Origin: a bacterium
GTDB lineage: Bacteria > SAR324 > NAC60-12
Assembly (NCBI GenBank): GCA_965233585.1
Contig: CBDDTI010000477.1
Coordinates: forward strand, 1-33,071
Direction of reading: 5' to 3'
DNA: 33,071 nt
Shown here: one piece after another, positions 3,084-33,071 of the stretch
Layout: each line of letters begins with the position of its first letter
Numbering within the stretch: position 1 is the first letter of the stretch
Notes under the pieces: generated by a model
The model's input: the letters and a program-made list of their open reading frames with translations, nothing else
Databases searched by the model: none
What the model was told of the DNA's origin: nothing
Made by a program: the position numbers and the translations under genes

Positions 3084-3109
3084 TTACACAAGTAGCAATG
3101 ATAAAAAGC

Positions 3110-4147
3110 ACAAATAAGATATCATGGAATTCAAATCACTGACAGAATAAGTAAGTCAAACAAAGATGTTCATTGCAGAAGACGCTTGGAAAAATTTTGA
3201 AAAAAACAACTAACTTTTTTTTGGAAAACACCATGCTCTCAAAAGATTTTCATCTTAGAAGACGCTTGGAAGTTAAATAGAAAAGCTTGGACAAAATTAT
3301 CGTTTTTCAAAACGCCACCCTCTTACAGGAGTCTCATCTTAGGAGAGGCTTGAAACAATTTTGATGGAAAAAATGGAAGAAAATCAATGTTTCTCAAAAC
3401 ACCATGCTTTCAAAAAAATCTTGTCCTAGATGTCGCTTGGAACAGTATTGACGGAAAAATTGGGAGACAAATACCGTTTTTTTTCCAAACACAAAAAAAT
3501 CATCTTAGATTTTTTTGGATTTTTCTGATAAGAAAACCTTGAGAAAACCACCTTTTTTTTCGATTCCTTTTGTTCTTCAAAATTCTCAACTTAAAAGCGT
3601 CTTGGAACAATTCTGATCGAAAAATTTGGAGGACATCACAATTTTTCAAAACACCATGCTCTGAAACGATTCTCATCTTAGAAACGCCTCGGCACAGTTC
3701 TGATGGAAAGATTGGGGGTAAATCGCCGATTTTTCAATATACCAGGCCCCTCAAAGATTCCCATCTTAGAAGTTTCTTGCAACTTTTTTTGCGACAAAAA
3801 CGATGCTCTGAAAGGATTCTTTCTCATCAAAGAAATAACTTGGAACAATTGTGATAGAAAAATTGGGATGCCATCACCGTTTTTCCAACCGTCATGTTCT
3901 TAACAGATTCTCACTTTAAAAGAAAGCAGAACATCGACACTTCAGCCTGTGTTGCAGTTGGCTCTCTTAAGAAGACTAGTTACTTATTTCCTAAGAAAAT
4001 ATAAGTTTTCGAAGCAGTGTTGATCGAAAAACTGGGAGAAAATCCTTTGATACAAGAAAAATGGGGTCAACCATCTTTTTCTTGCCGTTTACAAGATGAA
4101 GAGTTTCATGGTTTATCAAGACGCCATGTTCTTAAAAAGTTCTCATC
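3110..4147 (+). repeat. ~86-bp AT-rich satellite array (copy 1) with unique leader
   Basis: Unit tcttggaacaattttgatagaaaaattgggagaaaatcaccgtttttcaaaacaccatgctctcaaaagattctcatcttagaa; collinear with 10019-11025. Confidence 0.85.
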
Positions 4148-4149
4148 TA

Positions 4150-4825
4150 TACCTACCAACCTACGTAGGTACATACATACCACACCCAACCCACCCCACA
4201 GGGGGGCTGGGCAGCATGTGTACACCTTGCGTGATAGCTGGATTCCAGGGAGGTAGTACACCCAATCCCAGGAACCATCCCCATCGCATACATACATACG
4301 TACGTAACATACATACACATATAAATATATACAAACATACATGAACCTACGTAAGTACATACATACTACACCCAACCCACCCCACAGGGCGGGGGCGGGG
4401 AACAAAAGGTACCTTGCATGATAGTTGGATTCCAGGGAGGTAGTACACCTAATCCTAGGAAAAGCCCCGTCGCATTTATACATACATACGCACGTACGTA
4501 ACATTCATACACATATACATGCATACATACATACATAAACCTACTTAGGTACATACATACTACACCCAACCCACCCCATAGTTGGATTCCAGGAGGTAGT
4601 ACACCCAATCCGAGGAACCACCCCCCATCGAATACATACATACATACATACGTACGTAACATGCATAAAGATATGAACACATAGATACATAAATAAACCT
4701 ACGTGGTTACATACATACTACACCCAACCCATCCCATAGTTGGATTCCAGGGAAGTAGTACACCCAATCCTAGGAACGATCCCCATCGTGGGGATGAGAG
4801 GGGGTTGCAGGCCTGTACCATATTT
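4150..4825 (+). repeat. Four-unit ~160-190 bp tandem repeat with (TACA)n tracts, inserted into or truncating the satellite
   Basis: aacctacgtaggtacatacatac.acacccaacc at ~4158, 4344, 4538 and 4696; ends at the hairpin ccccatcgtgggg followed by ..gcaggcctgtaccatat. Confidence 0.85.
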
Positions 4826-4914
4826 ATATGTATATATTTTAAAAAAACATACGGAAAACATATTATGTTTAAAAACCAAAAATGCTTATATATATATATA
4901 TTTTTCAAATTTAT

Positions 4915-5513
4915 AAACACCATACCTGCCACATAATATAGAAGTCAATATTACCAAATAACATATATTCCAAATAGAACATATATTTATACTACCAAAG
5001 TCAAGATTTATCCCACCAAATAACACTAAATGTCATCAAATACCATACCTTCCATACAATTACCCGCGACGACCATGGCGCCAAACAAAACCCAAGCCGC
5101 TATCACACAAAATCAAGATCAATGCCACCAAGTAATACATAAGGTATAATAATTAACGTATTATATATAGGGTATGCGTGAGTAAATATGGGGTGGTGTG
5201 TGAATGAGTTGTGGGTAAGCATGTTGTGCGTGAGTAAATTATGTACTAGTTCTATGCGAGTAAGTTGTGTGTGTACGTGTTGCGTGTGAATGTTATGTGT
5301 GTGTATATTGTGTGCGATGGTTAAAAATATAAGTAATATCCGTGTGGGTGACAGTTGCGTGTAAGTAAGTTGTATGTATGTGAAAATTGTGCCCAAGGTG
5401 TTTGATTAATTTGAATATAAGCGTTATTTGTATAAGTCGCTGGCCAGAGGACGCAGCAGGAAGCAACCGGGAACACACAATCAAAAGCACGAACCCCGCA
5501 CAAAGATAGGGGC
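4915..5513 (-). mobile_element. Non-coding dispersed element with TG-rich core and conserved terminus
   Basis: The whole ~600 bp block is paralogous to 26510-27103; its terminus matches 3003-3083. Confidence 0.6.
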
Positions 5514-5689
5514 AAGTAGCAATTAAAAACTAGACGACGGATGGCCCAAGAGCGTAGAGGAGCAGGGTCTTCTTTTGTTAGTATGGAGACACAATTTTAC
5601 AAACAATATATGAAAGATGTGTTATAGGCAGTCGAGAAGAGGAGTAGCAAGACAAAATAGTGAGAAGTGCAAAACAATAGTTTGCATCG

Positions 5690-6225
5690 CAAACACTTTT
5701 ACACACAGACGCTTTTACACACAAAAGCTTTTTTTTACACACAGAAGCTTTTACACACAGAAGCTTTTACACAGAGACTATTACACACAAAGCTTTTACC
5801 CACAGAAGCTTTTACATATAGACGCTTTTACACACAGATGTTTTTACACACAGACGCTTTTTACACGGACACTTTTACACACACACACACACGTTTACAC
5901 ACAGACACTTTTACACACAGACCTTTTTACACACAGGAGCTGCTTTTACACACAAACGCTTTGACACACAGAAGCTTTTACACATAGACGCTTTTACACA
6001 CAGGCACTTTTACACACAAACACTTTTACATACAAACACTTTTACACACAAACACTTTTACACACAGATGCTTTTACACGCAGACGCTTGTACACACAGA
6101 AGCTTTTACACACAAACACTTTTACGCAGAAACACTTTACACACAGACGCTTTTACACACAGACGGCTTTACACACAAGCGCTTTTACACACAATCACTT
6201 GTACACACAGACGCTTTTACACAGA
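5690..6225 (+). repeat. ~19-bp minisatellite (TTTTACACACAGACGC-like)
   Basis: Dozens of ttttacacacagac/aagc units; source of the spurious THR/YTQ ORFs. Confidence 0.9.
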
Positions 6226-6291
6226 GGCCTGCCAATGTACTCACAGCGAAGTCATCGTTGTCGTGGCGACCTCAGCAATCGGACGGGGTGG

Positions 6292-7843
6292 TGTGGCGAA
6301 GTCCTATTTCCATGTGCCTCGGAACCAGCATGTATAAACATGTCATGCAAGCTATGTGCTTTGTGGCCCCCCAACCAAGGTGGTTTGCCATCTCTTGAAA
6401 AAAAGTATAAACGGGCGGACCTGGCAGGCGGTGACCGTTTCTGGGCTGGGACACGCACAGTATTACAATATGATATATGTTGTTCTTTATGGGTTTAGGG
6501 TCCTGACTCCTGACTGTGACTGGAATTGAAACTCTTATCTTAACACTCATACATCCATCTCTATATTTTAACACTCATACATCCATCTCTATATCATATC
6601 TCTAGCTCTATCTCAATAAAAAAATATATCGATGTGTCTCTTTGTGGTAGCAGCTTATCCAGGTAATCCATCCCATCCCGGGGCCCTGACTCGATGCAAA
6701 CCTAGCTGCACAGACAAACAATGCGGACACGCAAAGCATTCAAGGACTATGATTAATGACTGTGACAGATCACATTCAGCGATGTCACGGCACAACTATA
6801 TGCGCAAAAGGAATGGGCAGCTTTATTGCTCTTCTATGGAGTCTCAGACCGTTCTGCTTGACTCACGCCGATACACTATGGTGAGACAGGATGCACTATG
6901 GTGAAACTGAATGTCTCAAGCAAAGATGCGTGCATCAGCAAGTCTCAGACAGTTCTGGTTGAGCCAAAAATTATCATAGATTCAATTGGGGGGAGGTAAC
7001 AATAGATGTACCATGGCTCATGGCAAGGCCATGGTTCACCATCACCTCCATTGAAAATTATACGACCTGAGGAGGAGCCTGGACACGTATACCTTATATC
7101 GTGTGTGCATGTGTCGATGATGGCGTGGCGAAGTCCCATTTCCATGTGAACCGGAAGAAAAAGGAAATGATGTGACTCGAAACCAGCATGTATAAAGATG
7201 TCATGAGGGCTGTGTGCTTTGGGCCCCCCAACCAAGGTGGTTTGCCATCTCCCCAAAAAGAAGTATAAACCGGCGGACCTGGCAGGCCGCGAACGTTTCT
7301 GGGCTGGGACAAGCACAGTATTACAATATGATATAATGGGATGGCCCTTGTGCCCCTTTCCATGTGCTTTTTGGGTTTAGGGTCCTGACTCCTGACTGTG
7401 ACTTCAATTGAAACTCTTATCTTAACACTCATACATCCATCTCTATATATTAACACTCATACATCCAACTCTATATCATATCTCTAGCTCTATCCCAATA
7501 TAAAATATATCGATTTGTGTCTTTGTGGTAGCAGCTTATCCAGGTAATCCATCCCATCCCGGGGCCCTGACTCGATGCAAACCTAGCTGCGCAGACAAAC
7601 AATGCGGACCTGCAAAGCATTCAAGGACTATGACTAATAACTGTGACAGATCACATTCAGTGATATCCCGGCACAACTATATGCGAAAAAAGAAATGACA
7701 GGTTTATTGATCTTCGATGGAGTCTCAGACCGTTCTGTTTGACTCACGCCGATGCACTATGGTGAGACAGGATGCACTATGGTGAAACTGAATGTCTCAA
7801 GCAAAGATGCGTGCATCAAAAAATCTCAGACAGTTCTGGTTGA
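6292..7843 (+). repeat. Tandem duplication of a ~670-720 bp complex segment
   Basis: Copy 1 ~6292-6962 and copy 2 ~7125-7843, both running from gtggcgaagtcc.atttccatgtg to tctcagacagttctggttga, separated by ~160 bp of unique sequence. Confidence 0.9.
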
Positions 7844-8214
7844 CTCATGCTGATACACATCTCATTTTCAAATCGTCTTTGCGCCAAAATGATTACATGT
7901 ATGCAAATGCTTGTGCCACCGGTGAGAGGTAAACGGAAATGCTTGCGGTCACGTTTGCTCGGACAGTTCCGGTAGCAAACAAACAAACGTTCGTGCCAAC
8001 CTCAGCAAGGAAATATTATGCTAATATGTTACCCACAAACTCCACAATCCAAAAATCAGTGAATCCCAATGTAACTTCATTAATCCATTCATATTTCTTT
8101 CAGGGTACAAGTAAGCATGCCTACTGAACATGCCAAGCAAACAAGTCAGGACTGCGTCAAACGGATGACCGGAAAACAAACATGCCAAAGAAAACAAAAC
8201 ATGTAAGCAAGGCT

Positions 8215-8830
8215 GCTTTCACACACACATTGCCGCTGTCACACAGAAACACCTTTTACACAGAAACCCTTCTGCACACACACCATTTTATACAGAGACG
8301 CTTTAAGACACAAACCTTTTACACACAGACACTTTTACACACAAAAGCTTTCACACACAGAGACTTCTACACAGATGTACTTCTACACACAAATACTTTT
8401 ACACACAAACATCTTTACACAGAAACACTCTTACACACAAACCCTTTTACACAGATACACTTTCACACACAAAAGCGTTGACGCACAAACACTTTTACAC
8501 AGTTGCACTTGTACACACGAACACTTTTACACGCAAACATCTTTACACCGAAACACTCCGACACACAAACACGTTTACACACAAACACTTCTACACACAG
8601 AAGCTTTTACACACAAACACGTTTAAACAGATGCAATTTTACATACAATCACTTTTACACACAAACATCTTTACACAGAAACACTCGTACACACAAACCC
8701 GTTTACACAAAAAGACTTTTACACACAGAAGGTTTTGCACACAAGACTTCTGCACAGATGCACTTGTACACACACAAACAATTTTACACACAAACATCTT
8801 TACACAGAAACGCTCGTACACACAAACCCC
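8215..8830 (+). repeat. ~19-bp minisatellite, second block
   Basis: Same ttttacacacaaac/acagaaac unit family as 5690-6225. Confidence 0.9.
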
Positions 8831-8837
8831 TTTTCCT

Positions 8838-9210
8838 GCGAAAGGATTACTCCAGCACACGAAAAATTGCAATTTTACCTCAGTTTTTGCCGATCGACCC
8901 TCATTTCGTGCGAAAAGGTTGCTCCGGCACACGAAAAATCGCAATTTTACCTCAGTTTTTGCCGATCGACCCTCATTTCGTGCGAAACGGTTGCTTCGGC
9001 ACACGAAAAATCGCAATTTTACCTCAGTTTTTGCCGATCGACCCTCATTTCGTGCGAAAGGGTTGCTCCAGGACAAGTAAAATCGCAACTTTACCTCAGT
9101 TTTTGCTGATCGACCCTCATTTCGTGCGAAAGGGTTGCTCCAGGACAAGTAAAATCGCAATTTTACCTCAGTTTTTGCTGATCGACCCTCATTTCGTGCG
9201 AAAGGGTTGC
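8838..9210 (+). repeat. 72-bp tandem repeat, about 5 units
   Basis: aaaatcgcaattttacctcagtttttgc.gatcgaccctcatttcgtgcgaaagggttgc at ~8863, 8935, 9007, 9079 and 9151. Confidence 0.92.
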
Positions 9211-9270
9211 GTTTCGTGCCGTCTCGTTTGCACTGCCCCTGCCCCCGCCTTCAGAAGAGAAATAGAAAAG

Positions 9271-9963
9271 AAGGAGAGAGCAAGAGGGCAAGAGGGCAAG
9301 AGGAGAAGATGTGAAGATGTGAGGATGTGAAGATGAGAAGATGTGAAGATGAGAAGATGTGAAAATGTGAAGATGTGAGGATGTGAAGATGAGAAGATGT
9401 GAGAAGATGTGAGAAGATGTGAGAAGATGAGAAGATGTGAAGATGAGAAGATGTGAAGATGTGAGGATGTGAAGATGAGAAGATGTGAAGATGAGAAGAT
9501 GTGAAGAAAGGAGAGAGCAAGAGGGCAAGAGGGCAAGAGGAGAAGATGTGAAGATGTGAGGATGTGAAGATGGGAAGATGTGAAGATGAGAAGATGTGAA
9601 GATGAGAAGATGTGAAGATGTGAGGATGTGAAGATGAGAAGATGTGAGAAGATGTGAGAAGATGTGAGAAGATGAGAAGATGTGAAGATGAGAAGATGTG
9701 AAGATGTGAGGATGTGAAGATGAGAAGATGTGAAGATGAGAAGATGTGAAGATGCGAAGATGTGAAGATGAGAAGATGTGAGAAGATGTGAGAAGATGTG
9801 AAGATGAGAAGATGAGAAGAAGATGGGAGGATGAGAAGATGTGAAGTTGAGAAAATGTGAAGATGTGAAGATGAGATGTGAAGAGGAGAAGATGTGAAGA
9901 TGAGAGGATGTGAAGATGAGATGTGAAGATGAGAAGAAGATGAGATGTGAAGATGAGAAGATG
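9271..9963 (+). repeat. AAGATGTG/AAGATGAG octamer array with a 237-bp higher-order duplication
   Basis: The header aaggagagagcaagagggcaagagggcaagaggagaag occurs at 9271 and 9508. Confidence 0.92.
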
Positions 9964-10018
9964 TTTTACAGACCCCTACTATTGGAAGAACCCTGCGCTC
10001 AGACGCTCTCGGGAAAAA

Positions 10019-11425
10019 CACAAATAACATATCATGGAAATCAAATCACTGATCGAATAAGTCAGACAAATATTTTCATTGTAGAAGACGCTTGGAACAG
10101 TTTTGAAAAAAATTGGGAGAAAGCAACCGTTTTTCAAAACACCATGCTCTCAAAAGATTCTCATCTTAGAAGACGCTTGGAACAGTTTTGATAGAAAAGC
10201 TTGGACAAAATTATCGTTTTTCAAAAACACCACGCTCTTACAGGAATCTCATCTTAGGAGAGGCTTGGAACAATTTTGATGGAAAAATGGAAGAAAATCA
10301 ATGTTTCTCAAAACACCATGCTCTCAAAAAAGTCTTGTCCTAGATGTCTCTTGGAACAATCTTGACGGAAAAATTGGGAGACAAATACCGGTTTTTTTCC
10401 AAACACCAAAAAATCATCTTAGATTTTTTTTAATTTTTCTGATAAGAAAACCTTGGGGAAAACAATTCTTTTTTTTCGATTCCTTCTGTTCGTCAAAATT
10501 CTCAACTTAAAAGTGTCTTGGAACAATTCTGATCGAAAAATTTGGAGGACATCACAATTTTTCAAAAACACCATGCTCTGAAACGATTCTCATCTTAGAA
10601 ACGCCTTGGCACAGTTCTGATAGAAAAATTGGGGGTAAGTCACCGATTTTTCAATACACCATGCCCCTCAAAGATTCCCATCTTAGAAGTTTCTTACAAC
10701 AATTTTTGCGACAAAAATTTGGGAGAAGATCACCTTTCTTCAAAACACCATTGCTCTGAAAGGATTCTCATCATAGAAATTTCTTGGAACAATTGTGACA
10801 GAAAAATTGGGAGACCATCACCGTTTTTCCAAACATCATGCTCTTAAGATTCTCATTTTAAAAGTTTTCGAAGCAATTTTGATCGAAAAATTGGGAGAAA
10901 ACCACCGTTTTTCAATTCAGAATGCTCTGATAGAAGAAAATGGGGTCAGCCATCGTTTTTTTGCTGTTAAAAGATGATGAGTTTCATCTTTTATCAAGAC
11001 ACCATGTTCTTAAAAGATTCTCATCTTTGAAATTCTTGGGTCAATTTTGATAGAAAAATTGGAAGAAAAATACCGTTTGTCAAAACCATTCTTTTAAACA
11101 CCATGCTCTTAAAAGATTCTTATCTTACAGCTTCCTTGGACCAATTTTGATAGAAAAATTGCGAAAACATCACCGTTTTTCAAAACACAATGTTCTTGAA
11201 AGATTTTTTATCTAACAGGTATTGCTCTGAAAAAATTCTCAATTTTGAAATGTTTTGAAACAATTTTGATAAAAACAAATTGGGAGAAAATCACCGTTTT
11301 TCAAAACGCCATGCTCTTAAAAGATTCTTATCCTTGAAATGTCTTGGAACAATTTTGATAGAAAAATTGGGAGAAAATCATCGTTTTTCAAAACATAATG
11401 TGCTTAAGAGATTCTCCCAATTTTT
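10019..11425 (+). repeat. ~86-bp satellite array (copy 2) with the same leader as copy 1
   Basis: cttggaac anchors at 10091, 10176, 10264, 10350 and onward; leader caaataacatatcatggaaatcaaatcactga matches ~3111-3142. Confidence 0.88.
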
Positions 11426-14458: not shown

Positions 14459-15148
14459 TCTCAGAAAAAAATGCGGAAAACCCCGATGGCTTACCCTTGG
14501 AATCCTTTAGTGGCCCTTCGTATGGGAGAAGCTAACTGATGGCAGCCAAGTGCCCCTAATAGTCACTTTTGGACAGTTCGCAATTTCGCAAGAGTAAATA
14601 CTGACTATGCTTAGTTTATTCTTAAATAAGTGGCTATATTCCCTGACTACTGGAAGTCTAGCATTCTCTTGGCCTAGTAAGGTTTGGAACAATTGTCATT
14701 AAAATTCAAAATGCGCAAAAGATTTCGCACTGCTGCTGCAACACCCGGCCAAAACTGAAAACACAAAAGCTTTGAACATGGAGCCCCCTAAGAACTTCTT
14801 GCCATCGATCAGAATCATATAATCAACACATTCATGGTGGCACTACTTCCATGTTGGTTTTCAACAAAAATCATATCCTAAGCCAACCAATACCGAAAAC
14901 ACCAAAAGTGTTGAAAACACTAACTTTTGTGAAAGTTCCTTATATATATATATATAAATAAATATATATATATGGGACTATGGTGGCCACCAGCTGCGAT
15001 TTAAATGCGCCCAGGTGCACCACCACAGTCCCCGCAGGTACGTTTGCACGGGTCCCGGGGAGGTGTCTTCGTTGGTCACCGATCCCCCCTGGACCCCCGG
15101 TGACCACCTGCAAAAATAGAAGTTTTACATCTATTCAGATGGTAACAG

Positions 15149-16945
15149 TTTTGCATGGCAGGCATGGCCCAATCTCACATCCACTTTCGTTTTGCATGGC
15201 AGGCGTGGCACAATCTCACAGCTGCCTTCGTTTTGCGTGGCAGGCGTGGCGCTCATGGGCCTGGGTGGCGCGCTTGGGCCGGTTTTGTCACGGATGACGC
15301 CGCGGCACTTTGCGTGGCAGGTGTGGCAAAAATCTCAAACTTAACTGTTTTGCATGGCAGGCGTGGCGCAAGCTCACATCCACCTTCGTTTTACATGGCA
15401 GACGTGGCACAATCTCACATCCGCCTTCGTTTTCGCGGCAGGCGGCGTGCCGCTCATGGGACTGGGTGGCGCGCTTGGGCCGGTTTGGTCGCGGATGACG
15501 CCGCGGCACTTTGCGTGGAAGGCGTGGCGCACATCCACCTTCGTTCTGCATGGCAGGCGTGGCACAATCTCACATCCGCCTTTGTTTTGCGTGGCAGGCG
15601 TGCCACTCATGGGACTGGGTGGCGCGCTTGGGCCGGTTTGGTCGCGGATGACGCCGGTACTTTGCGTGGCAGGCGTGGCGCACTCTCACATCCACCGTCA
15701 TTTGCATGGCAGGCGTGGCGCAATCTCACATCCGCCGTCGTTTTGCATGGCAGGCCTGGCGCAATTTCACATCCGCCTTCGTTTTGCGTGGCCGGCGTGC
15801 CGCTCATGGGGCTGGGCGGCGCGCTTGGGCCGGTTTGGTCGCGGATGACGCCGCGGCACTTTGCGTGGCAGGCATGGCACAATCTCCCATCCACCGTCGT
15901 TGTGCAGGCGTGGCGCAATCTCACATCTGCCTTCGTTTTGCGTGGCAGGCGTGGCGCTGATGGGACTGGGTGGCGCGCTTGACTCTTTGTGGCACACTCT
16001 CACATCCACCTTCGTTTTGCATGGCCGGCGTGCACAATCTCACATCCGCCTTCGTTGTGCGTGGCAGGCGTGGCACTCATGGGACTGGGTGGCGCGCTTG
16101 GGCCGGTTTGGTCGCGGATGGCACCGCGGCACTTTGCGTGGCAGGCGTGGCGCACATCCACCTTCGTTTTGCATGGCAGGCGTGGCGCAATCTCACATCT
16201 GCCTTCGTTTTGCGTGGCAGGCGTGCCACTCATGGGACTGGGTGGCGCGCTTGGGCCGGTTTGGTCGCGGATGACGCCGAGGCATTTTGCGTGGCATGCG
16301 TGGCAGGCGTGGCGCAATCTCACATCCACCTTCGTTTCACCTGGCAGGTGTGGCGCAATCTCACGACCTTCGTTTTGCGTGGCAGGCGTGGCACTCATGG
16401 GACTTGGGCCGGTTTGGTCGTGGATGACGCCGCGGCACTTTGCGTGGCAGGCGTGGCACAATCTCACATCCACCTTCGTTTTGCGTGGCAGGCGTGGCGC
16501 AATCTCACATTCACCTTCGTTTTGCGTGGCACGCGTGGCACTCATGGGACTGGGTGGCGCGCTTGGGCCGGTTTGGTCGCGGATGACGCCGCGGCACTTT
16601 GCGTGGCAGGCGTGGCGCAATCTCACATCCACCTTCGTTTCACGTGGCAGGCGTGGCGCAATCTCACGTCCGTCTTCGTTTTGCCTGGCAGCCGGTTTGG
16701 TCGTGAGTGACGCCGCGGCACTTTGCGTGGCAGGCGTGGCACCATCTCACATCCACCTTCGTTTTGCGTGGCAAACATGGCGCAATCTTTCATCCACCTT
16801 CGTTTTACGTGCAGGGGTGGCACTCATGGGACTGGGCGGCGCACTTAGACTGGTTTGGTCGCGAATGACGCCGCGGCACTTTGCGTGGCAGGCGTGACGC
16901 AATCTCACATCCACCTTCGTTTTGCGTGGCAGGTGTGGCACTTAT
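15149..16945 (+). repeat. GC-rich composite minisatellite (TTGCGTGGCAGGCGTGGCGCAATCTCACATCCACCTTCG with a GGGACTGGGTGGCGCGCTTGGGCCGG subunit)
   Basis: Many copies of a ~40-45 bp subunit interleaved with a ~85 bp subunit; explains the AWQAW/RGRRG/VAGVA ORFs in all frames. Confidence 0.92.
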
Positions 16946-20030: not shown

Positions 20031-21064
20031 CAACATTTCTTGATCCGCAATGAGTTAGGAGTAGCTTCCAGTAAGATTTCATTGGCTGCCCCACTCATGT
20101 TGTAGCAAAATCGCACGCATGAAGCCTCTTTGTGTTTGCTACTAGCTCAGGTGCCCATCCAGTGAGCTTCTTGGACGGAGGAAAGGCGCGTGTCGCATGG
20201 CCCGACAATGAGTCCACGAGTCTATGTCCTCAGGAGCAAGAGCTTTGACCCAATGTGGGAAAAAGCGTATGCAGATTCATCGCGAACCGACACCTATTTG
20301 AATGTCTATGATGCCTGTGTGTTTCTAAAATTTGTGGTTGGTTGACATATTTTGTCAGGTAATTTTTTGTATGTCATCATCGTCGGATTCCTGGCTGTAG
20401 GAAAGGCGTGGTTGTCACGTAGCACATCTCGTAGCACAGAAGATAATGGAATACCTCATTCAGCCGATTCCAGATCCGCAGTGCTCCCGGATGGAGAGCA
20501 GGTGACATTGCAGCGCTGGCCAAAAAAATGGTCTGCACTGTCGCGCACACAAATCATCTTTCATACGCCGCATCTTTCACACGCAACTTACATACATACA
20601 TACATGCATACATGCATACAAACAAAACGAAAAACCCCACAGGATGGCTCTCCTAGTAACGCCGGAAGATTAGCAGTTGATCCTGTCTATATGCCAGGTA
20701 TGATTACCAGCCACAGGGTATGCAGAAAGAGTTCGCAAAATTCGCGGCTGCGCCCGAAAGAGTGCAGAACATTACCTTGGTCAGCGGAAGTATGGTGAGC
20801 AGACCATCGCTTTGATAGCAGAGCCTGGTGGAACTCGAAGCAAGCGGAGCAACTTACTCACAAACAACCTACTCACAAACAACTTACTCTACATACAGAC
20901 ATACATACATAGATACATACATACATTACTATCTTTTCACACACTTTCTTGCTTTGTCACACACCCTCTTTCACATTCTACTTTAACACACACAACTGTT
21001 TTAACTTCTTTGAAGCTCATTATTGGAAGAAGTTGACTTGTGGGGTTATCCGTTCCTTTAATTT

Positions 21065-23760
21065 ATCAAAACGGTTCCAAGAGATTTCTAAGATAAGAAT
21101 CCTTTAAGGACATGGTTGTTTTGAAAAACGTTGATTTTCAACCACTGACTTCTGAAAAGAGAATTTTTCAAGTGCATGGTGGTTCTAGCAACAGTAATTT
21201 CCTATCAATTTTTCTATGAAAATTGTTCCAAGAAACTTTTAAGATGAGAATATTTTGAGAGCACGGTGTTTGAAAAAACGGTGATTTGCTCGCTTTTTTC
21301 CATCAAAAAAATATTCCAAGATATTTCTAAAATATTTTTTTTTAAAGTACGGGATTTTGAAAAACGATGATTTTCACCCAATTTTTCTATCAAAATTGTT
21401 CCAAAAAAATTCGACGATGAATATTTAATAAGAACATGGCCTTTTGAAAACGAATAATTTTTCCCTATTTTTTGCAAAATTGTTCCACGAAACTTCAAAA
21501 ATGAGAAAGAATTTTTTGAGAGCATGGTGTTTTGAAAAACGGTGGTTTCCGCCAATTTTTTTGAAAATTGTTCCGAAATATCTAAAGTGAGCATTTTTGA
21601 GGAGCACGGTGTTTTGAAAAACGGTGATTTTCGCCTAATTTTTCTTCCATTTTTTTGCGAGACATTTCTAAGAAATTGCTAAGATGATTTTTTTTTCAAA
21701 ATATGATAATTGAAAAACGATGCTTTTCTCGCAATTTTTAAACCAAAAATGTTCCAAAAGATTTCTAAGATAAGAATCTTTTAAGGGTATGATATTTTGA
21801 AAAATACGGATTTTCTATTTTTTTCCATAAAAATTATGTCAAAAAAATTCTAAGATATTTTTTTTTTAAAATCCATGATAATTTGAAAAATTAGGAGAGG
21901 AGAATTATCAATTTTCAAAATATCATAATCTTAAAAAATTCTTATTCGTCAAATTTATAAATAATTTTCATTTTTCAAAATACCATTTTCTCAATAAATT
22001 TAAATCTTTGAAATTTCTTGGAATAATTTTGATGGAAAAATTGGGAGAAAATCGTCATTTTTCAAAATTTCATGTTCTTAAAAAATTCTTATCTTAGAAT
22101 TGTCTCGGAAAAAAATTGTTGGAAAAATAGGTAGAAAATGATCGTTTTTCAAAATATAATGTTCTGAAAAAAATTGATCTTAGAAATTTGATATTTTTTT
22201 TGCAAAAAAATGGGGGTGAGGCCCATCTATTTTCATAAATTCGTATCTGAGAAATTTCTTAGAATTCTTTATATAAAAATTAGATAAAAATTATTATTTT
22301 TCAAAATGCCACGGCCTTAAAAAATTATTATAGAAATTTTTAAAAATAATTTTGAAATTTTTCAAAATATTATGCATTTAAAATATTCTTATCTCGGATT
22401 TTTTTTTGCAATAATCTGAATAGAAAAATTAAAATAAAACTATTATTTTTCAAAAAATCATGCTTTTTAAAAAAATACCTCAAAAATTTCTCGGCAGAAT
22501 TTTAATCAATAAATTAAAAATTATTATTTTTCAAAATACCATGCTATTAATAGATTTTCATCGTGGAAATTTCTTGGAATAATTTTAATATAAAATATTG
22601 GGAAACAATTATTATTTTTCAAATTATTATGTCCCTCAAAAATTCTTAGCTTAGAAATTTCTTGTAACAATTTTTCAAAAAAAATTGGGAGGAATTTACC
22701 ATTTTTTTACTTATCATATTTTTAAAATAAATTCATCTTAGAAATTTCTTCGAACAATTTAATTAAAAAAAATTAGGTTAAAATCATTATTTTTCAAAAT
22801 ACCATGCTCTTAAAAAATTCTTATTTTAGAAATATTTTGGAAGGATTTTGAAAGAAAAATTGGACGAAAAATACGAATTTCAAAATATTATATTCTTAAA
22901 TGATTTTTATCTTAGAAATATTTTGGAATAAATTTAATTTAAAAAAATGGGAAAAATTACCATTGATCGAAATATAATGCTCTTAAAAAATCCTTATCCT
23001 AGAAATTTCTTGCATAATTTTGATAAAAAAAATTAATCAAAATTATTCTTTTTCAAAACATCATGATATCATCTTAAAATACATTTGGAATAATTTTAAT
23101 AAAAAATAAAAATCAATTTAAAAAATTGGATTTTTTTTTTCAAAATATTATGCTTAAAAAAAATCTGGCTCTCCAATTATTGTCATCTTTGAAATTTCTT
23201 GGAAAAAAACTATTAGAAAAAAATAATCAAAATTATTAAATTTTTAAAATATTTAATTCAAATAAATTTATTCCCGAAATTTCTTGGAAAAAAAAAACCT
23301 TAATATTTCTTATTTTAGAAATATCTTCGAATTCGAATCTTTTTAATAATAAAATTTGGAGAAAATTATTTTTTTAAATTTACATGCTCTTAAAAAAAAT
23401 ATAGATATTTTTTGGAACAATTTTGACAAAAAAATATCGGAACCATTTTTAATAAAAAAAAATGCGGACGGAACAAAATTGAATTCAATATTATTTTGGA
23501 AATATTTTAATAATTTTAATAAAAATATCGGAGAAAAACATAATTAAAAATTATATTTTTTAATAATTGTTATTTTCGAATTTTTTCTTTAACTTTTAAT
23601 TTTTTAAAAAAAAATATATGATTCTTTTTCAAAGCTCCATTGTCTTGAAAATTTTGATTCTAAAATTATCTTGGAAAAAAATTAATACAATAATAAGGAA
23701 GAAATCACCGTTTCTCAAATTATTATGTTTTTTAAATATTTTTATCTTAGGAATACAAAG
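21065..23760. repeat. ~86-bp satellite, minus orientation to ~21880 then plus orientation, progressively AT-eroded
   Basis: aaattgttccaagaa..agcatggtgttttgaaaaacggtg units first, then tttcttggaataattttgatggaaaaattgggagaaaatc units from ~22015 with increasing loss of G and C. Confidence 0.8.
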
Positions 23761-23819
23761 TGGAAAATACAAAGAATATCGATGTCAATTTTTCTGCAAA
23801 TATCCCTGTCAGGAATTCA

Positions 23820-24237
23820 ATGTATAAAATAATTAATTTTATTCCTCCCAATAATTTACAACCAAAAAAAATCATTAATAATTTTTTTCCATAAATAATA
23901 TTTTTATATTTAAATTAATATAATTCAAATATTTTATTTAAATTAATTACTTAATAATTTTTATTAAAAAAATATTAATATATTTATATTATTCCCAAAT
24001 TTCATATAATCAAAATTTCCAATCGAAAACTTAATAATTACCAATATATTATTTTTTTCCAATAAATAAAAATAATATATATAAAAATTTAGATAAATTA
24101 TATAAAACTAATATAATATAAAAAATATATATAATATATATAAAAAAATATATTTAAAAAAATAATATATTAAAATTATATAAAAAATATTATTTAAATA
24201 AATTAAATATAATTATATTAAATTAAATTTATATATA
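23820..24237. other. Near-pure A/T tract
   Basis: Very few G or C; abrupt return to normal composition at ~24238. Confidence 0.85.
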
Positions 24238-24279
24238 TGAGTTGTGTTTTAAATGTCTTGCATGGCGGCACCAAACAAG

Positions 24280-25180
24280 GAAAAATTTACGCTGCTGCTT
24301 ACGCATTGCTTAAGCGCACACAAGTTTTACTTACGCACGTTATAGTACCTTGCGCAGACCTCACGCGGACAATTTTTAGCACGTCACCACAGTTTCGACT
24401 TATGCGCAGCAACTTTTACATGCAAGAATCGAGGCAGTGATTGGCAAAATCAAGCAGTGGACGATGAAGATGTGGAAGAAGAGGAAGAAGATGATGAAGA
24501 AGTACCACCAGCAGAAGCTCGCCAAGCACGAAGCTGACGACGTTTTTTGACAGCACCCTTGCTGAGAGCACGGGCATGACTGGAAAGTTTCTCTTTGGGC
24601 GGCATGGGCAACTACTGACAAAAGCACCTTTGGCTTACGCGCAGCTTACGCGACACTTACGCGGTCCTTATGCGGATGTCAGGAAACAACTACGCAAAAC
24701 ACCCACTGAAGATAACCAATGTTCCTTCAAGAAAAGGCATTCCAATGCATAGGTTGCCTGTCACTCTCTGCATCTGCCCCTTTCTGATATGCTGAATTCT
24801 TAAGTACATGTAGGTCCCTGTAAACCTTGAACAACGAATTTTTTCAATTTATAAATTGTCCATATCGACAGAAATGGGGAAAACCATCCATACTCTATAA
24901 GACCAGGTAACCTGAAATTGATACCAAAGCCATACAGGTGTGTTGAACTGAAAAACAGGAGGGCTACCGTGGCCCTAGGAAAATCAAAAACCCGTCCGGT
25001 TATGTCAGGTTAGGATACATCATATATACCACTACTTAAAACTTCATATTAAAACCGTTGAAAATGAGCTTACGCCATCCTTACGCCAGCAATATTGGTA
25101 AAAAAAATGCTTACGCAAGCTTACGCGCATCAGTATTTTGCTTACATAACAGGCCCTTACAAGGATCCCAATACTAAATA
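24280..25180. repeat. Element with clustered CTTACGC motifs at both ends and the centre
   Basis: ttacgc clusters at 24287-24410, 24634-24695 and 25068-25160. Confidence 0.55.
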
Positions 25181-25755: not shown

Positions 25756-25844
25756 TCGAAGTTAGGGTAGTTAAGTTAGTGAAGTTAGTTAAGTTAATTA
25801 ATGTCTACTTTTTCGACATCTTCACGTCAAAAAAGGCTCAAAAC

Positions 25845-26262
25845 CCTCAGTTTTTTACACTTTTGACTTCGAAATGTGCTTCGCGCCACAACGGCGTGCA
25901 CTTTTTCGACATCTGAACCTCCAAAAGTAGTCCGAGACCGTCAGTTTTTAATACTTTTGACTTGGAAACGTGCTTCGCGCCACAACGGCGTGAACTTTTT
26001 CGATATCTAAACCTCCAAAAGTAGTCCGACATTGGTGTGTTTTGTACATTTTGACTTCAAAATATGCTTCGTGCCACAACGGCGTACGCTTTTTCGACAT
26101 CGCAACTTCCAAAAGTGGTCCGACCATGGTGTATTTTGTACATTTTAACTTCAAAATATGCTTCGCGCCACAACGGCGTATACTTTTTCGACATCTCAAC
26201 TTCCAAAAGTAGTCCGCTCCTCTAGTGTTTTGTTCATTTTAACTTGGAAATGTGCTTCGACG
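25845..26262. repeat. ~94-bp tandem repeat, about 4.5 units
   Basis: tttt(g/a)actt.(g/a)aa..tgcttcgcgccacaacggcgt at ~25861, 25956, 26049, 26143 and 26237 (last unit partial). Confidence 0.9.
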
Positions 26263-26499: not shown

Positions 26500-27185
26500 T
26501 AAAAAAATATTAATATCACCAAAAATAATATTTTTTAAATATAATAAATATTTATATTACCAAATTCAAAATTATTTCACCAAACAACACTAAATCTCAT
26601 CAAATACCATACCTCCCATACAATTACCCGCGACATTCATAGCGCCAAACCAAAACTATCCCACAAAATCAAAATTAATACCATCAAAAAATATATAATA
26701 TACAAAATATAAATTACATATAAATAAATATAAATTATGTAAATATATAATTAAAAATAAATAAATTATATATATAATATATGTTTATATATTATGTTTA
26801 TATATTATGTAAAATAAATAAATTCTATAAATAAAATATATATAGGTATATTATACCTAAATATATTATATTTAAATATAATATACCTATATATTATATT
26901 TAAATAAATTATATATAAGTCTTATATTATGTATAATAGTTATATATATATATATATATAAATAAATATTTTATAAAAAAAATATTTATACATATATTAT
27001 ATATATACAAATAATTATATAAATTGTCGATCAAAAGACGCAATAGGAAACAAGCGAAAATATACAATCAAAAAGAATAACCCCCGCACAAATATATAAG
27101 GAATTAAATATAAGTATCAATCAAAAAAGAAACACAAATAATAAAACATCCTGGAATCCAAATCACTGCTCCAATAAATCAGACC
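26500..27185. repeat. AT-eroded paralogue of 4915-5530 plus the satellite leader
   Basis: caccaaacaacactaaatctcatcaaataccatacctcccatacaattacccgcgac (26578-26633) aligns to 5014-5070; 27025-27183 aligns to 3003-3160. Confidence 0.85.
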
Positions 27186-32029: not shown

Positions 32030-33071
32030 GGGAGGGGTGATGGGGTGGGCGGGTGTGTTAACGTTCCTGACACTTCGCCTTGAAGATGATGTTACGCTAC
32101 GGCACGTTGTCTTGGAAGTTGCGTCATGTCATGATGGGGTCAGGGTTGGGCGGGTGTGTTAACGTTCCTGACACTTCGCCTTGAAAATGATGTTACGCTA
32201 CGGCACATTGTCTTGGAAGTTGCGTCATGTCATGATGGGGTCAGGGTTGGGCGGGTGTGTTGACGTTCGTTTGTTGACGTTCCTGACACTTGCATCTTAA
32301 AGATGATGCTACGTTACGGCACGTTGTCTTGGAAGTTGCGTCATGTCATGATGGGGTCAGGGTTGGGCGGGTGTGTTGACGTTCGTTTGTTAACGTTCCT
32401 GACACTTGCGTCTTGAAGATGATGTTACGCTACGGCACATCGTCTTGGAAGTTGCGTCATGTCATGATGGGGTCAGGGTTGGGCGGGTGTGTTGACGTTC
32501 CTGACACTTGCGTCTTGAAGATGATGCTACACTAAGGCACATTGTCTTGGAAGTTGCGTCATGTCATGATGGGTTCAGGGTTGGGCGAGTGTGTTGACGT
32601 TCGTTTGTTGACGTTCCTGACACTTGCATCTTGAAGATGATGCTACGTTACGGCACGTTGTCTTGGAAGTTGCGTCATGTCATGATGGGGTCAGGGTTGG
32701 GCGGGTGTGTTGACGTTCGTTTGTTGACGTTCCTGACACTTGCATCTTGAAGATGATGCTACGTTACGGCACGTTGTCTTGGAAGTTGCGTCATGTCATG
32801 ATGGGGTCAGGGTTGGGCGGGTGTGTTGATGTTCGTGACACTTGCGTCTTGAAGATGATGCTACGTTACGGCACGTTGTCTTGGAAGTTGCGTCATGTCA
32901 TGATGGGTTCAGGGTTGGGCGGGTGTGAGGACGTTCCTGACACTTGCGTCTTGAAGATGATGCTACGTTACAGCACGTTGTCTTGGAAGTTGCGTCATGT
33001 CATGGTGGGGTCAGGGTTGAGCGGGTGTGTTGCCGTTCCTGACACTTGCGTCTTGAAGATGATGCTACGTT
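32030..33071. repeat. Young tandem repeat, 101-102 bp and 116 bp unit variants, about 10 units, runs off the window
   Basis: ggcgggtgtg anchors (allowing single mismatches) at ~32048, 32149, 32250, 32366, 32482, 32584, 32700, 32816, 32918 and 33020; long units carry a 14-bp internal duplication (gacgttcgtttgtt). Confidence 0.95.

Follow-up and report, generated by a model that had tools for sequence, protein, structure and literature searches.

The DNA analysed here (the window) is a 33,071-nt stretch that makes up the entire contig C477 (CBDDTI010000477.1) of GCA_965233585.1, a 12.0 Mb assembly of 747 contigs filed as a bacterium; C-numbers denote contigs of this assembly, L-numbers loci from contig scans and P-numbers database proteins. 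Its positions 5530–10014, on the minus strand, hold a block of three satellite arrays between two terminal modules. This block is a single copy of a dispersed repeat family with sharp ends, and very probably a non-autonomous rolling-circle transposon of the HLE2 group (a designation covering Helitron2 and Helentron alike) that resembles the HINE/DINE-1 elements. Read 5' to 3', the block starts at 10014 as TCCCGAGAGCGTCTGAGCGCAGGGTTCTTC directly after tttt, and ends at 5530 as ...GAAGACCCTGCTCCTCTACGCTCTTGGGCCATCCGTCGTCTAG directly before ttttt, at the coordinates proposed in an earlier reading of the window from its letters alone (the sequence-only reading). Across the family the 5' end is TCCCGAGAGCG... 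and the 3' end ...GGGCCATCCGTCGTCTAG.

All modules of the block lie on the minus strand. The 5' terminal module (LTS, 9964–10014, ~50 nt) starts with the T at 10014 and was delimited by its sequence and its conservation in 119 copies; it contains the 5' arm of an inverted repeat, an arm with its core at 10003–10013 (CCCGAGAGCGT) that extends to 9985. Three arrays follow: an 8/16/24-bp satellite (AAGATGAG-type on the plus strand; 9298–9963, 81.8 copies of 8 bp), found directly after the LTS in seven of the eight paired copies; a 72-bp satellite (8832–9210, 5.3 copies), which always comes after the 8-bp array; and a 16-bp satellite that tandem-repeat detection resolved into part B (8241–8827, 36.6 copies) and part A (5696–6223, 32.6 copies), 72–77% identical to each other and in the same orientation. 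The 3' terminal module (RTS, 5530–5695, 166 nt) matches the C352 copy with 96.8% identity over 188 nt. By repeat alignment it contains the 3' arm of the inverted repeat (5545–5572, core 5545–5555), which is followed by a 15-nt tail, CCATCCGTCGTCTAG (5530–5544). Among the paired copies, order and orientation (LTS, 8-bp, 72-bp, 16-bp, RTS) did not vary. All eight contained the 72-bp and 16-bp arrays and seven the 8-bp array and a long RTS, and the length of a copy tracked the length of its arrays. The other paired copies repeat this array order, which makes the three satellites modules of a single element, as the sequence-only reading had supposed of what look like three minisatellites.

The two parts of the 16-bp array are split by a ~2 kb insert (6224–8240), absent from the seven other paired copies, in which the 16-bp array is unbroken. 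The insert contains a 365-nt region X (7850–8214) and an internal duplication (6312–6962 and 7170–7843, offset ~881 bp, 89% identical). Apart from X, which recurs in C230, no other match to it was found in 8 Mb plus 0.56 Mb of coral DNA. Three open reading frames (ORFs) lying wholly or mostly within it (136, 123 and 120 aa) had no Pfam match, and neither an Rfam family nor a tRNA was detected. The insert may be a nested repeat, a core specific to one subfamily, or filler that the element captured.

Summed contig depth in four sequencing runs was ~4 × 10^3 to 9 × 10^6 in almost all bins within the element (run X2 had one low bin there) and mostly ~20–500 in the flank bins, reaching ~3,000 in the outermost left bin. 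This contrast reflects high repetition and is not a measure of copy number.

Termini, target site and empty sites

The terminal 30-mer of the element occurs once in the window and was matched in none of 100 shuffles, and both termini were found again elsewhere within the assembly. A scan of metagenome contigs with the 5' 19-mer returned at least 120 loci; the following 5'-end statistics refer to the matches listed. Every 5' end was preceded by T (120/120). In the 119 copies with enough flank, T frequency was 97, 92, 83 and 100% at –4, –3, –2 and –1, respectively, and 39% at –5; upstream of the run, up to and including –5, T stood at the background of 32–45%. The upstream flanks were all distinct (119 of 119), while the first 48 nt of the element (positions 0–47) were 85–100% conserved. 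Thus the sharp boundary expected by the sequence-only reading was observed, conservation dropping from 97–100% to background at –5. Many of the metagenome contigs stop ~100 nt inside the element. At the 3' end, 17 matches were found in the examined DNA, all followed by T; 16 are genuine and one (C155) is doubtful. What all 16 genuine 3' ends share across subfamilies is no more than the last ~25 nt. The 5' and 3' termini formed 11 oriented pairs spanning 1,287–7,175 bp, and the pairing anticipated by the sequence-only reading was thereby borne out.

The family is not uniform. A second subfamily, represented on C652 (18505–22422) and C548, differs in its right module, has a left module of variant sequence (TCCCGAGAGCGCCTGCGAAGGGTTCTTC...) and retains just the repeat core (10 nt, with different neighbouring sequence) and the last ~25 nt. 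The right module of L072 also differs, having only these last ~25 nt in common with the others. Scanning genome contigs with the 3' 18-mer gave one real match, L122 (1–5339; recorded as MAG: Endozoicomonas sp. isolate Pac_F2a). This contig is a chimera, with phage terminase and portal genes up to ~5030 and, after that point, the final ~210 nt of a coral element, separated by a 7-nt T-rich spacer from the 5' end of another copy. A 674-aa ORF on L122 had looked promising as a partner gene and was rejected as the phage terminase of this chimeric contig. The only 3' 18-mer match outside coral-derived DNA (L123, from viral contigs) was a chance match in GC-rich, ORF-dense DNA, followed by G and lacking the repeat arm, and serves as a negative control.

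The insertion site was examined through its uninterrupted paralogues. The two 200-nt flanks of the window copy adjoin at window 3105/3107 (82% identical across 206 nt, 85% across 115 nt). The uninterrupted 39-mer is present on the minus strand at 3089–3127, so that the in-window empty site claimed in the sequence-only reading exists, with its start at 3089 rather than 3088; the eroded further copy that it placed at 27111–27155 was also present as a sequence match. Within the assembly, the host repeat around the insertion is limited to the window contig. A clearer comparison was available for the C581 copy, of which both flanks are known and for which empty paralogues were found at C581:19598 (98%), C322:4918 (91.5%) and on C657 (85%). 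The 98% and 91.5% paralogues read ...gggtttcttttgctaaa..., and the filled site reads ...gggtttctttt[TC...CTAG]tgctaaa.... Aligned at the joint, the filled site (ctttt, element, tgcta) exceeds the empty one (cttttgcta) by the element and one extra T, and by nothing else. Therefore the inserted DNA is TC...CTAG plus one T, assignable to either end, directly after TTTT. This DNA can equally be read as TC...CTAGT that was added behind TTTT or as T-TC...CTAG set between two Ts. In the window copy the extra T is that at 5529, or equivalently one T of the run at 10015–10018, consistent with the T that followed CTAG in 17 of 17 matches. Of the earlier proposal of a TC...CTAG unit without target-site duplication (TSD), the absence of duplication stood, and the unit proved one T longer.

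The TTTT ahead of the element (10015–10018, aaaa on the plus strand) is target and not element, because the T run was kept in uninterrupted look-alikes of all 12 insertion sites for which these were available. In six of the 12 (C581, L004, L030, L037, L055 and L121) the run of the look-alike is followed by G or A, and in the other six by T. These data agree with the T-run target of the sequence-only reading and with the target of the non-autonomous Helitron2 elements of Chlamydomonas, which insert between TTTT and T/C without a TSD (PMC3627910; the cited papers are represented here and below by extracts). Ambiguity over boundary Ts, or between TC and TTC, has also been described for Helentrons and for Fusarium elements (PMC4067079, PMC5148889). 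Among the 11 oriented pairs the two flanks share runs of 1–5 T only, and no TSD was found.

In contigs assembled from four runs, no joint skipping exactly 5530–10014 was seen among the 15 listed of more than 1000 joints, and none of the contigs bridges either element boundary. Record 12 of run X16 is a 488-nt contig, 92% identical to window 10015–10422, whose alignment begins at the first base past the element and which carries 82 unaligned letters ahead of that point; this contig may come from a paralogue or from an empty allele.

Inverted repeat, junction folds and tandem copies

An asymmetric inverted repeat with an 11-nt core (CCCGAGAGCGT / ACGCTCTCGGG) was present in all eight paired copies tested. 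The core begins at nt 2 in six of the eight, and in the remaining two the best alignment starts at nt 4. The 3' arm ends 15 nt from the 3' end in six copies, and 13 and 17 nt from it in the other two. The alignment score was reached by 0–12 of 2000 shuffles across the eight copies (2/2000 for the window copy). The arrangement recognized in the sequence-only reading, one arm terminal and the other ~15 nt inside, was thus recovered, with the core starting at nt 2 and a 15-nt tail.

Folding was examined for the separate ends and for joined ends. The natural near-tandem junction on L122 (5205–5290; CTAG, 7 nt, TCCC) folded at –26.8 kcal/mol (z = –6.4), and no shuffle was as stable. When the 3' and 5' ends of single copies were joined computationally, the junction was more stable than shuffles (z ≤ –2.67) in seven of the eight copies. 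In the joined-end fold both element ends lie in the loop.

One contig, C230 (1–29245), consists wholly of 21 head-to-tail units of 1338–1398 bp with 22 exact 5' ends. Each unit begins at the exact 5' end and carries both the 8-bp and the 72-bp arrays along with X in three copies, and adjacent units are 93.8–99.8% identical; no element 3' end was found anywhere in the array. Helitron tandem arrays in which inner copies lack the 3' end have been ascribed to rolling-circle read-through (PMC7492417, PMC5148889), and C230, with its 21 units lacking a 3' end, is like the 3'-truncated arrays cited there. It may have arisen by such read-through or by unequal crossing-over after nested insertion at a T-rich site; both give the same picture, and the C230 sequence fits the two equally.

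Probable rolling-circle origin and its alternatives

By five of seven tested features the element is a non-autonomous HLE2 of the HINE type. It has the short asymmetric inverted repeat of this group (8–18 nt, with the 3' arm internal and the 5' arm 0–4 nt from its end), uses a T run as target (in this group between T and T, or for Helitron2 between TTTT and T/C), makes no TSD and carries central tandem repeats between its terminal modules, a frequent and not obligatory trait that here takes the form of three arrays in fixed order. The two features not found are a 3' stem-loop or palindrome, and a 5' hairpin or inverted repeat involving the 5' arm. The element thus deviates from its kind in having no terminal hairpins of its own, a short 15-nt tail, Helitron1-like TC/CTAG letters and three arrays in fixed order. 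The Helitron2/Helentron-type reading first made from the sequence alone is supported, and every test that it had named against itself came out in its favour.

Several observations weigh against this assignment. Folding detected no hairpin at the 5' end (z = +1.13 versus shuffles for the first 60 nt) and no stem-loop between the 3' arm and the end (the last 81 nt gave z = –0.28, the last 46 nt +1.36). Hairpins are missing from some published HLE2 groups as well (the 3' one from FoHeli3-5, the 5' one from the Chaetomium elements; PMC5148889). The 3' tail measures 15 nt, as against 20–60 nt in published elements. The computed junction of one copy in eight, L058, was no better than shuffles (z = +0.46), and the T count is settled by one high-identity empty site, the window's own paralogue being too diverged in the T run. 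A further gap concerns the autonomous partner. Copies with the same ends enclosing a Rep-helicase ORF, whose search the sequence-only reading had proposed as a check, were not found in the searched data. The Helitron_like_N domain gave no match in the assembly, in the Endozoicomonas metagenome-assembled genome of L122 or in 63 related genomes, a weak negative since the control genomes also gave none. The sole PIF1 match in the assembly is a bacterial gene on C747. ORF scans downstream of 5' ends at 13 loci returned just frames open across satellites. Five loci reach >3 kb downstream from a 5' end, and among 60 of their ORFs Pfam detected no Rep or helicase, only DUF4116 and a weak DUF7158. A tblastn search with bacterial PIF1 against 560 kb of loci gave no match, one with four full-length HLE2 proteins against the assembly and loci retrieved only relics in C1 and C542, and a scan of viral contigs with P0002 gave no match.

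The C1 relic is a DUF6570 match (E = 4e-19) with one internal stop; this N-terminal domain has been used as an HLE2 transposase marker in a recent survey (PMC11417382). Its database relatives are 84–99% identical and up to 1651 residues long, include the full-length P0002, P0014, P0041 and P0017, and carry DUF6570 and Helitron_like_N, some also a PIF1 helicase or OTU domain; one is from an octocoral. Among the 120 best hits, the precomputed Pfam lists contain no endonuclease domain. The C1 locus itself (7362–8438, L128) is rearranged, with DUF6570 on the plus strand and an adjoining minus-strand piece that matches the first 196 residues of P0002. Judged by sequence similarity, the host lineage has HLE2 transposases, because it holds this relic and the relatives are full-length. 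Their family is not linked to the termini described here, which also counts against the assignment, and its connection to the element is something we infer.

Four other explanations were weighed against the same data. If the element were a non-autonomous canonical Helitron (HLE1), the TC and CTAG ends (a CTRR motif) found in all copies would be accounted for directly. Such elements lack inverted repeats and carry a 16–20 nt palindrome ~11 nt from the 3' end (PMC4067079), whereas here folding gave no 3' hairpin and the asymmetric inverted repeat is present in 8/8 copies. The insertion between A and T expected of HLE1 is not seen either, the element being preceded by T and never by A and followed by T, and we regard this assignment as improbable. 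A cut-and-paste inverted-repeat transposon or miniature inverted-repeat element would also have inverted repeats at its ends, and the same 6-mer, aaaaac, spans both boundaries of the window copy (5525–5530 and 10014–10019), which the sequence-only reading had noted as a possible 6-bp TSD. However, this 6-mer recurs in one of the 11 pairs, the window's own, the others sharing 1–5 Ts; a single T is all that could count as duplicated at the C581 empty site; and the 3' arm lies 15 nt inside the end, so that the ends are asymmetrical, in place of the fixed TSD and symmetrical terminal inverted repeats of that class. A cut-and-paste origin is accordingly very hard to sustain.

That the block is an immobile composite satellite, with conserved edges spread by segmental duplication or recombination, would fit the high repetition of every part in coral runs (the depth contrast between element and flanks given above) and the existence of the pure tandem array C230. 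Against it, the 119 upstream flanks are all distinct with conservation breaking at one position, there are filled and empty paralogue pairs, and the target rule is uniform; we consider it a very improbable account. Equally little credence is given, as for the cut-and-paste transposon, to a SINE-like retroposon on the opposite strand that would end ...CTCTCGGGA plus a short A tail. Plus-strand AAAA does follow the element end in most copies, but the T/A run is already in 12/12 look-alikes and is thus target rather than tail, its length is fixed at ~4, no variable-length duplications were found, and the 5' and 3' ends are both sharp with no 5'-truncated series.

The HLE2 reading suggests how the family could move. 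A Rep-helicase (HUH/Y2) transposase, supplied in trans from an autonomous HLE2, would nick between T and TC and peel off one strand, terminating at CTAG(T). The single strand would then be joined into a circle in which the repeat arms could pair as an 11-bp stem, the ~17-nt loop of the circle junction presenting the joined ends to the enzyme, and re-insertion would target TTTT. Head-to-tail arrays without a 3' end such as C230 would result where termination was missed or nested copies recombined, and slippage would let array lengths drift, producing the copy sizes of 1.3–7.2 kb. The recognition step is proposed because the arms pair when the 3' and 5' ends meet in the junction folds, and it agrees with Bao and Jurka, who suggested that the end point of replication is marked by pairing between the arms (PMC3627910).

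A bolder version can be formulated, which we consider unlikely. The family could represent an HLE2 subtype without hairpins of its own, whose sole recognition structure would be the arm–arm stem across the joined ends, with the cleavage sites in its loop; circovirus and geminivirus origins, where the cleavage sites also lie in a loop, offer a comparison. The same family could also have seeded major coral satellites, an idea prompted by the 29 kb C230 array and by the 16-bp repeat, whose read depth is very high.

Coral host and known relatives

Prokaryote-like ORF density was found in only 42 contigs of the assembly (3.9 Mb); the remaining 705 (8.1 Mb), including the window, are ORF-poor and repeat-rich. 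A search of the assembly for 7tm_1 (rhodopsin-type receptor) gave 41 matches on scattered small contigs and none in 14 control prokaryotes, and the closest Atlas cluster to one of these matches is mostly Cnidaria. Twenty public runs from eight studies contain one third to one half of the words sampled from window 4600–10900, and their labels are coral metagenome or coded organism names. Taken together, the ORF-poor contigs, the 7tm_1 matches, the cnidarian Atlas cluster and the coral runs therefore place the element in the nuclear genome of a coral animal, mis-binned with a bacterium assigned to SAR324. An Atlas look-up of one window ORF gave no usable lead. Marker-based quality of the assembly is 92.49% complete and 2.09% contaminated, and the case bears on database hygiene: about two thirds of a bacterial species-representative genome is animal DNA despite that contamination reading.

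Other repeats of the window were recorded. An 87/88-bp satellite at 10082–11416 flanks the insertion of the element, and decayed copies of it lie in two extremely AT-rich tracts (21000–24500 and 26500–27100, G+C 0.16–0.28), as if G and C had been lost wholesale. A composite satellite at 15148–16821 (G+C 0.61–0.64, 41-bp and 153-bp periods) contrasts sharply with its surroundings. The unit of a 94-bp satellite at 25807–26259 resembles, by eye, the repeat that hosts element copy L004, uninterrupted paralogues of which were found on C646, C636, C547, C51 and L068. A 102/116/334-bp satellite (32056–33071) runs off the contig end.

For coral annotation, the results provide a curated family whose ends are exact, together with a rule for its target and a map of its modules. 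The family explains the co-occurrence of seemingly unrelated minisatellites and the breaks of short-read assemblies at the element, and the joined-end hairpin offers a concrete idea of how a transposase may recognize the ends. It also extends to a reef-building cnidarian the link between satellites and Helentrons known from flies and oysters. Helitron-like elements are known in cnidarians (PMC11934779, PMC11417382), and no description of this family or of coral HINEs was found in the literature, judged mainly by titles and the openings of abstracts.

The kind of element has been well characterized in flies, mites, mosquitoes, oysters, algae and fungi. The Fusarium FoHeli elements (Chellapan et al., 2016, PMC5148889) are likewise HLE2 with asymmetric inverted repeats, an ambiguity between TC and TTC at the start and a hairpin missing in some groups; experiments detected joined ends of these elements, in keeping with a circular intermediate. 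They differ in being autonomous, 5–11 kb long, with other termini and a TNAT target, and the extract mentions no satellites. The Chlamydomonas elements Helitron-1N1_CRe as well as Helitron-1N2_CRe (Bao and Jurka, 2013, PMC3627910) share the 5' T and asymmetric terminal inverted repeats with the 5' arm 0–2 bp from the end. In contrast to the coral element, Helitron2 is described there with a hairpin at each end and the 3' arm 20–30 bp from the end, and the Chlamydomonas elements are ~660 bp long, with no internal tandem repeats mentioned in the extract.

HINEs are characterized by subterminal repeats, central tandem repeats, T-rich targets, element-owned Ts of variable number and the absence of a TSD (PMC4067079, PMC7492417). 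The arthropod HINE/DINE-1-like elements (Thomas, Vadnagara and Pritham, 2014, PMC4067079) resemble the coral element in being non-coding, with a short inverted repeat whose 5' arm is near-terminal and whose 3' arm is subterminal, and in their central micro- or minisatellites, T-rich insertion, lack of a TSD, ambiguous boundary Ts and high copy number. Unlike them, the coral element has neither a 5–10 bp palindrome after the 3' arm nor an inverted repeat beside the 5' arm, and its ends are TC...CTAG; in mite HINEs the 3' arm lies 38–60 nt from the end rather than 15 nt. Helentrons proper are defined by an endonuclease domain, AP-type, of the autonomous element, and for the coral family no partner that could carry it was found. 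Unlike the coral copies, with their three arrays in fixed order, the oyster Cg_HINE elements (Vojvoda Zeljko et al., 2020, PMC7492417) draw their repeats from one, exceptionally two, clusters, and their 3' palindrome can form a stem-loop. As in the coral family, no autonomous partner has been linked to them. They share with it satellite-like arrays between left and right modules, subterminal inverted repeats, insertion at T-rich or TT sites without a TSD, and paralogous empty sites.

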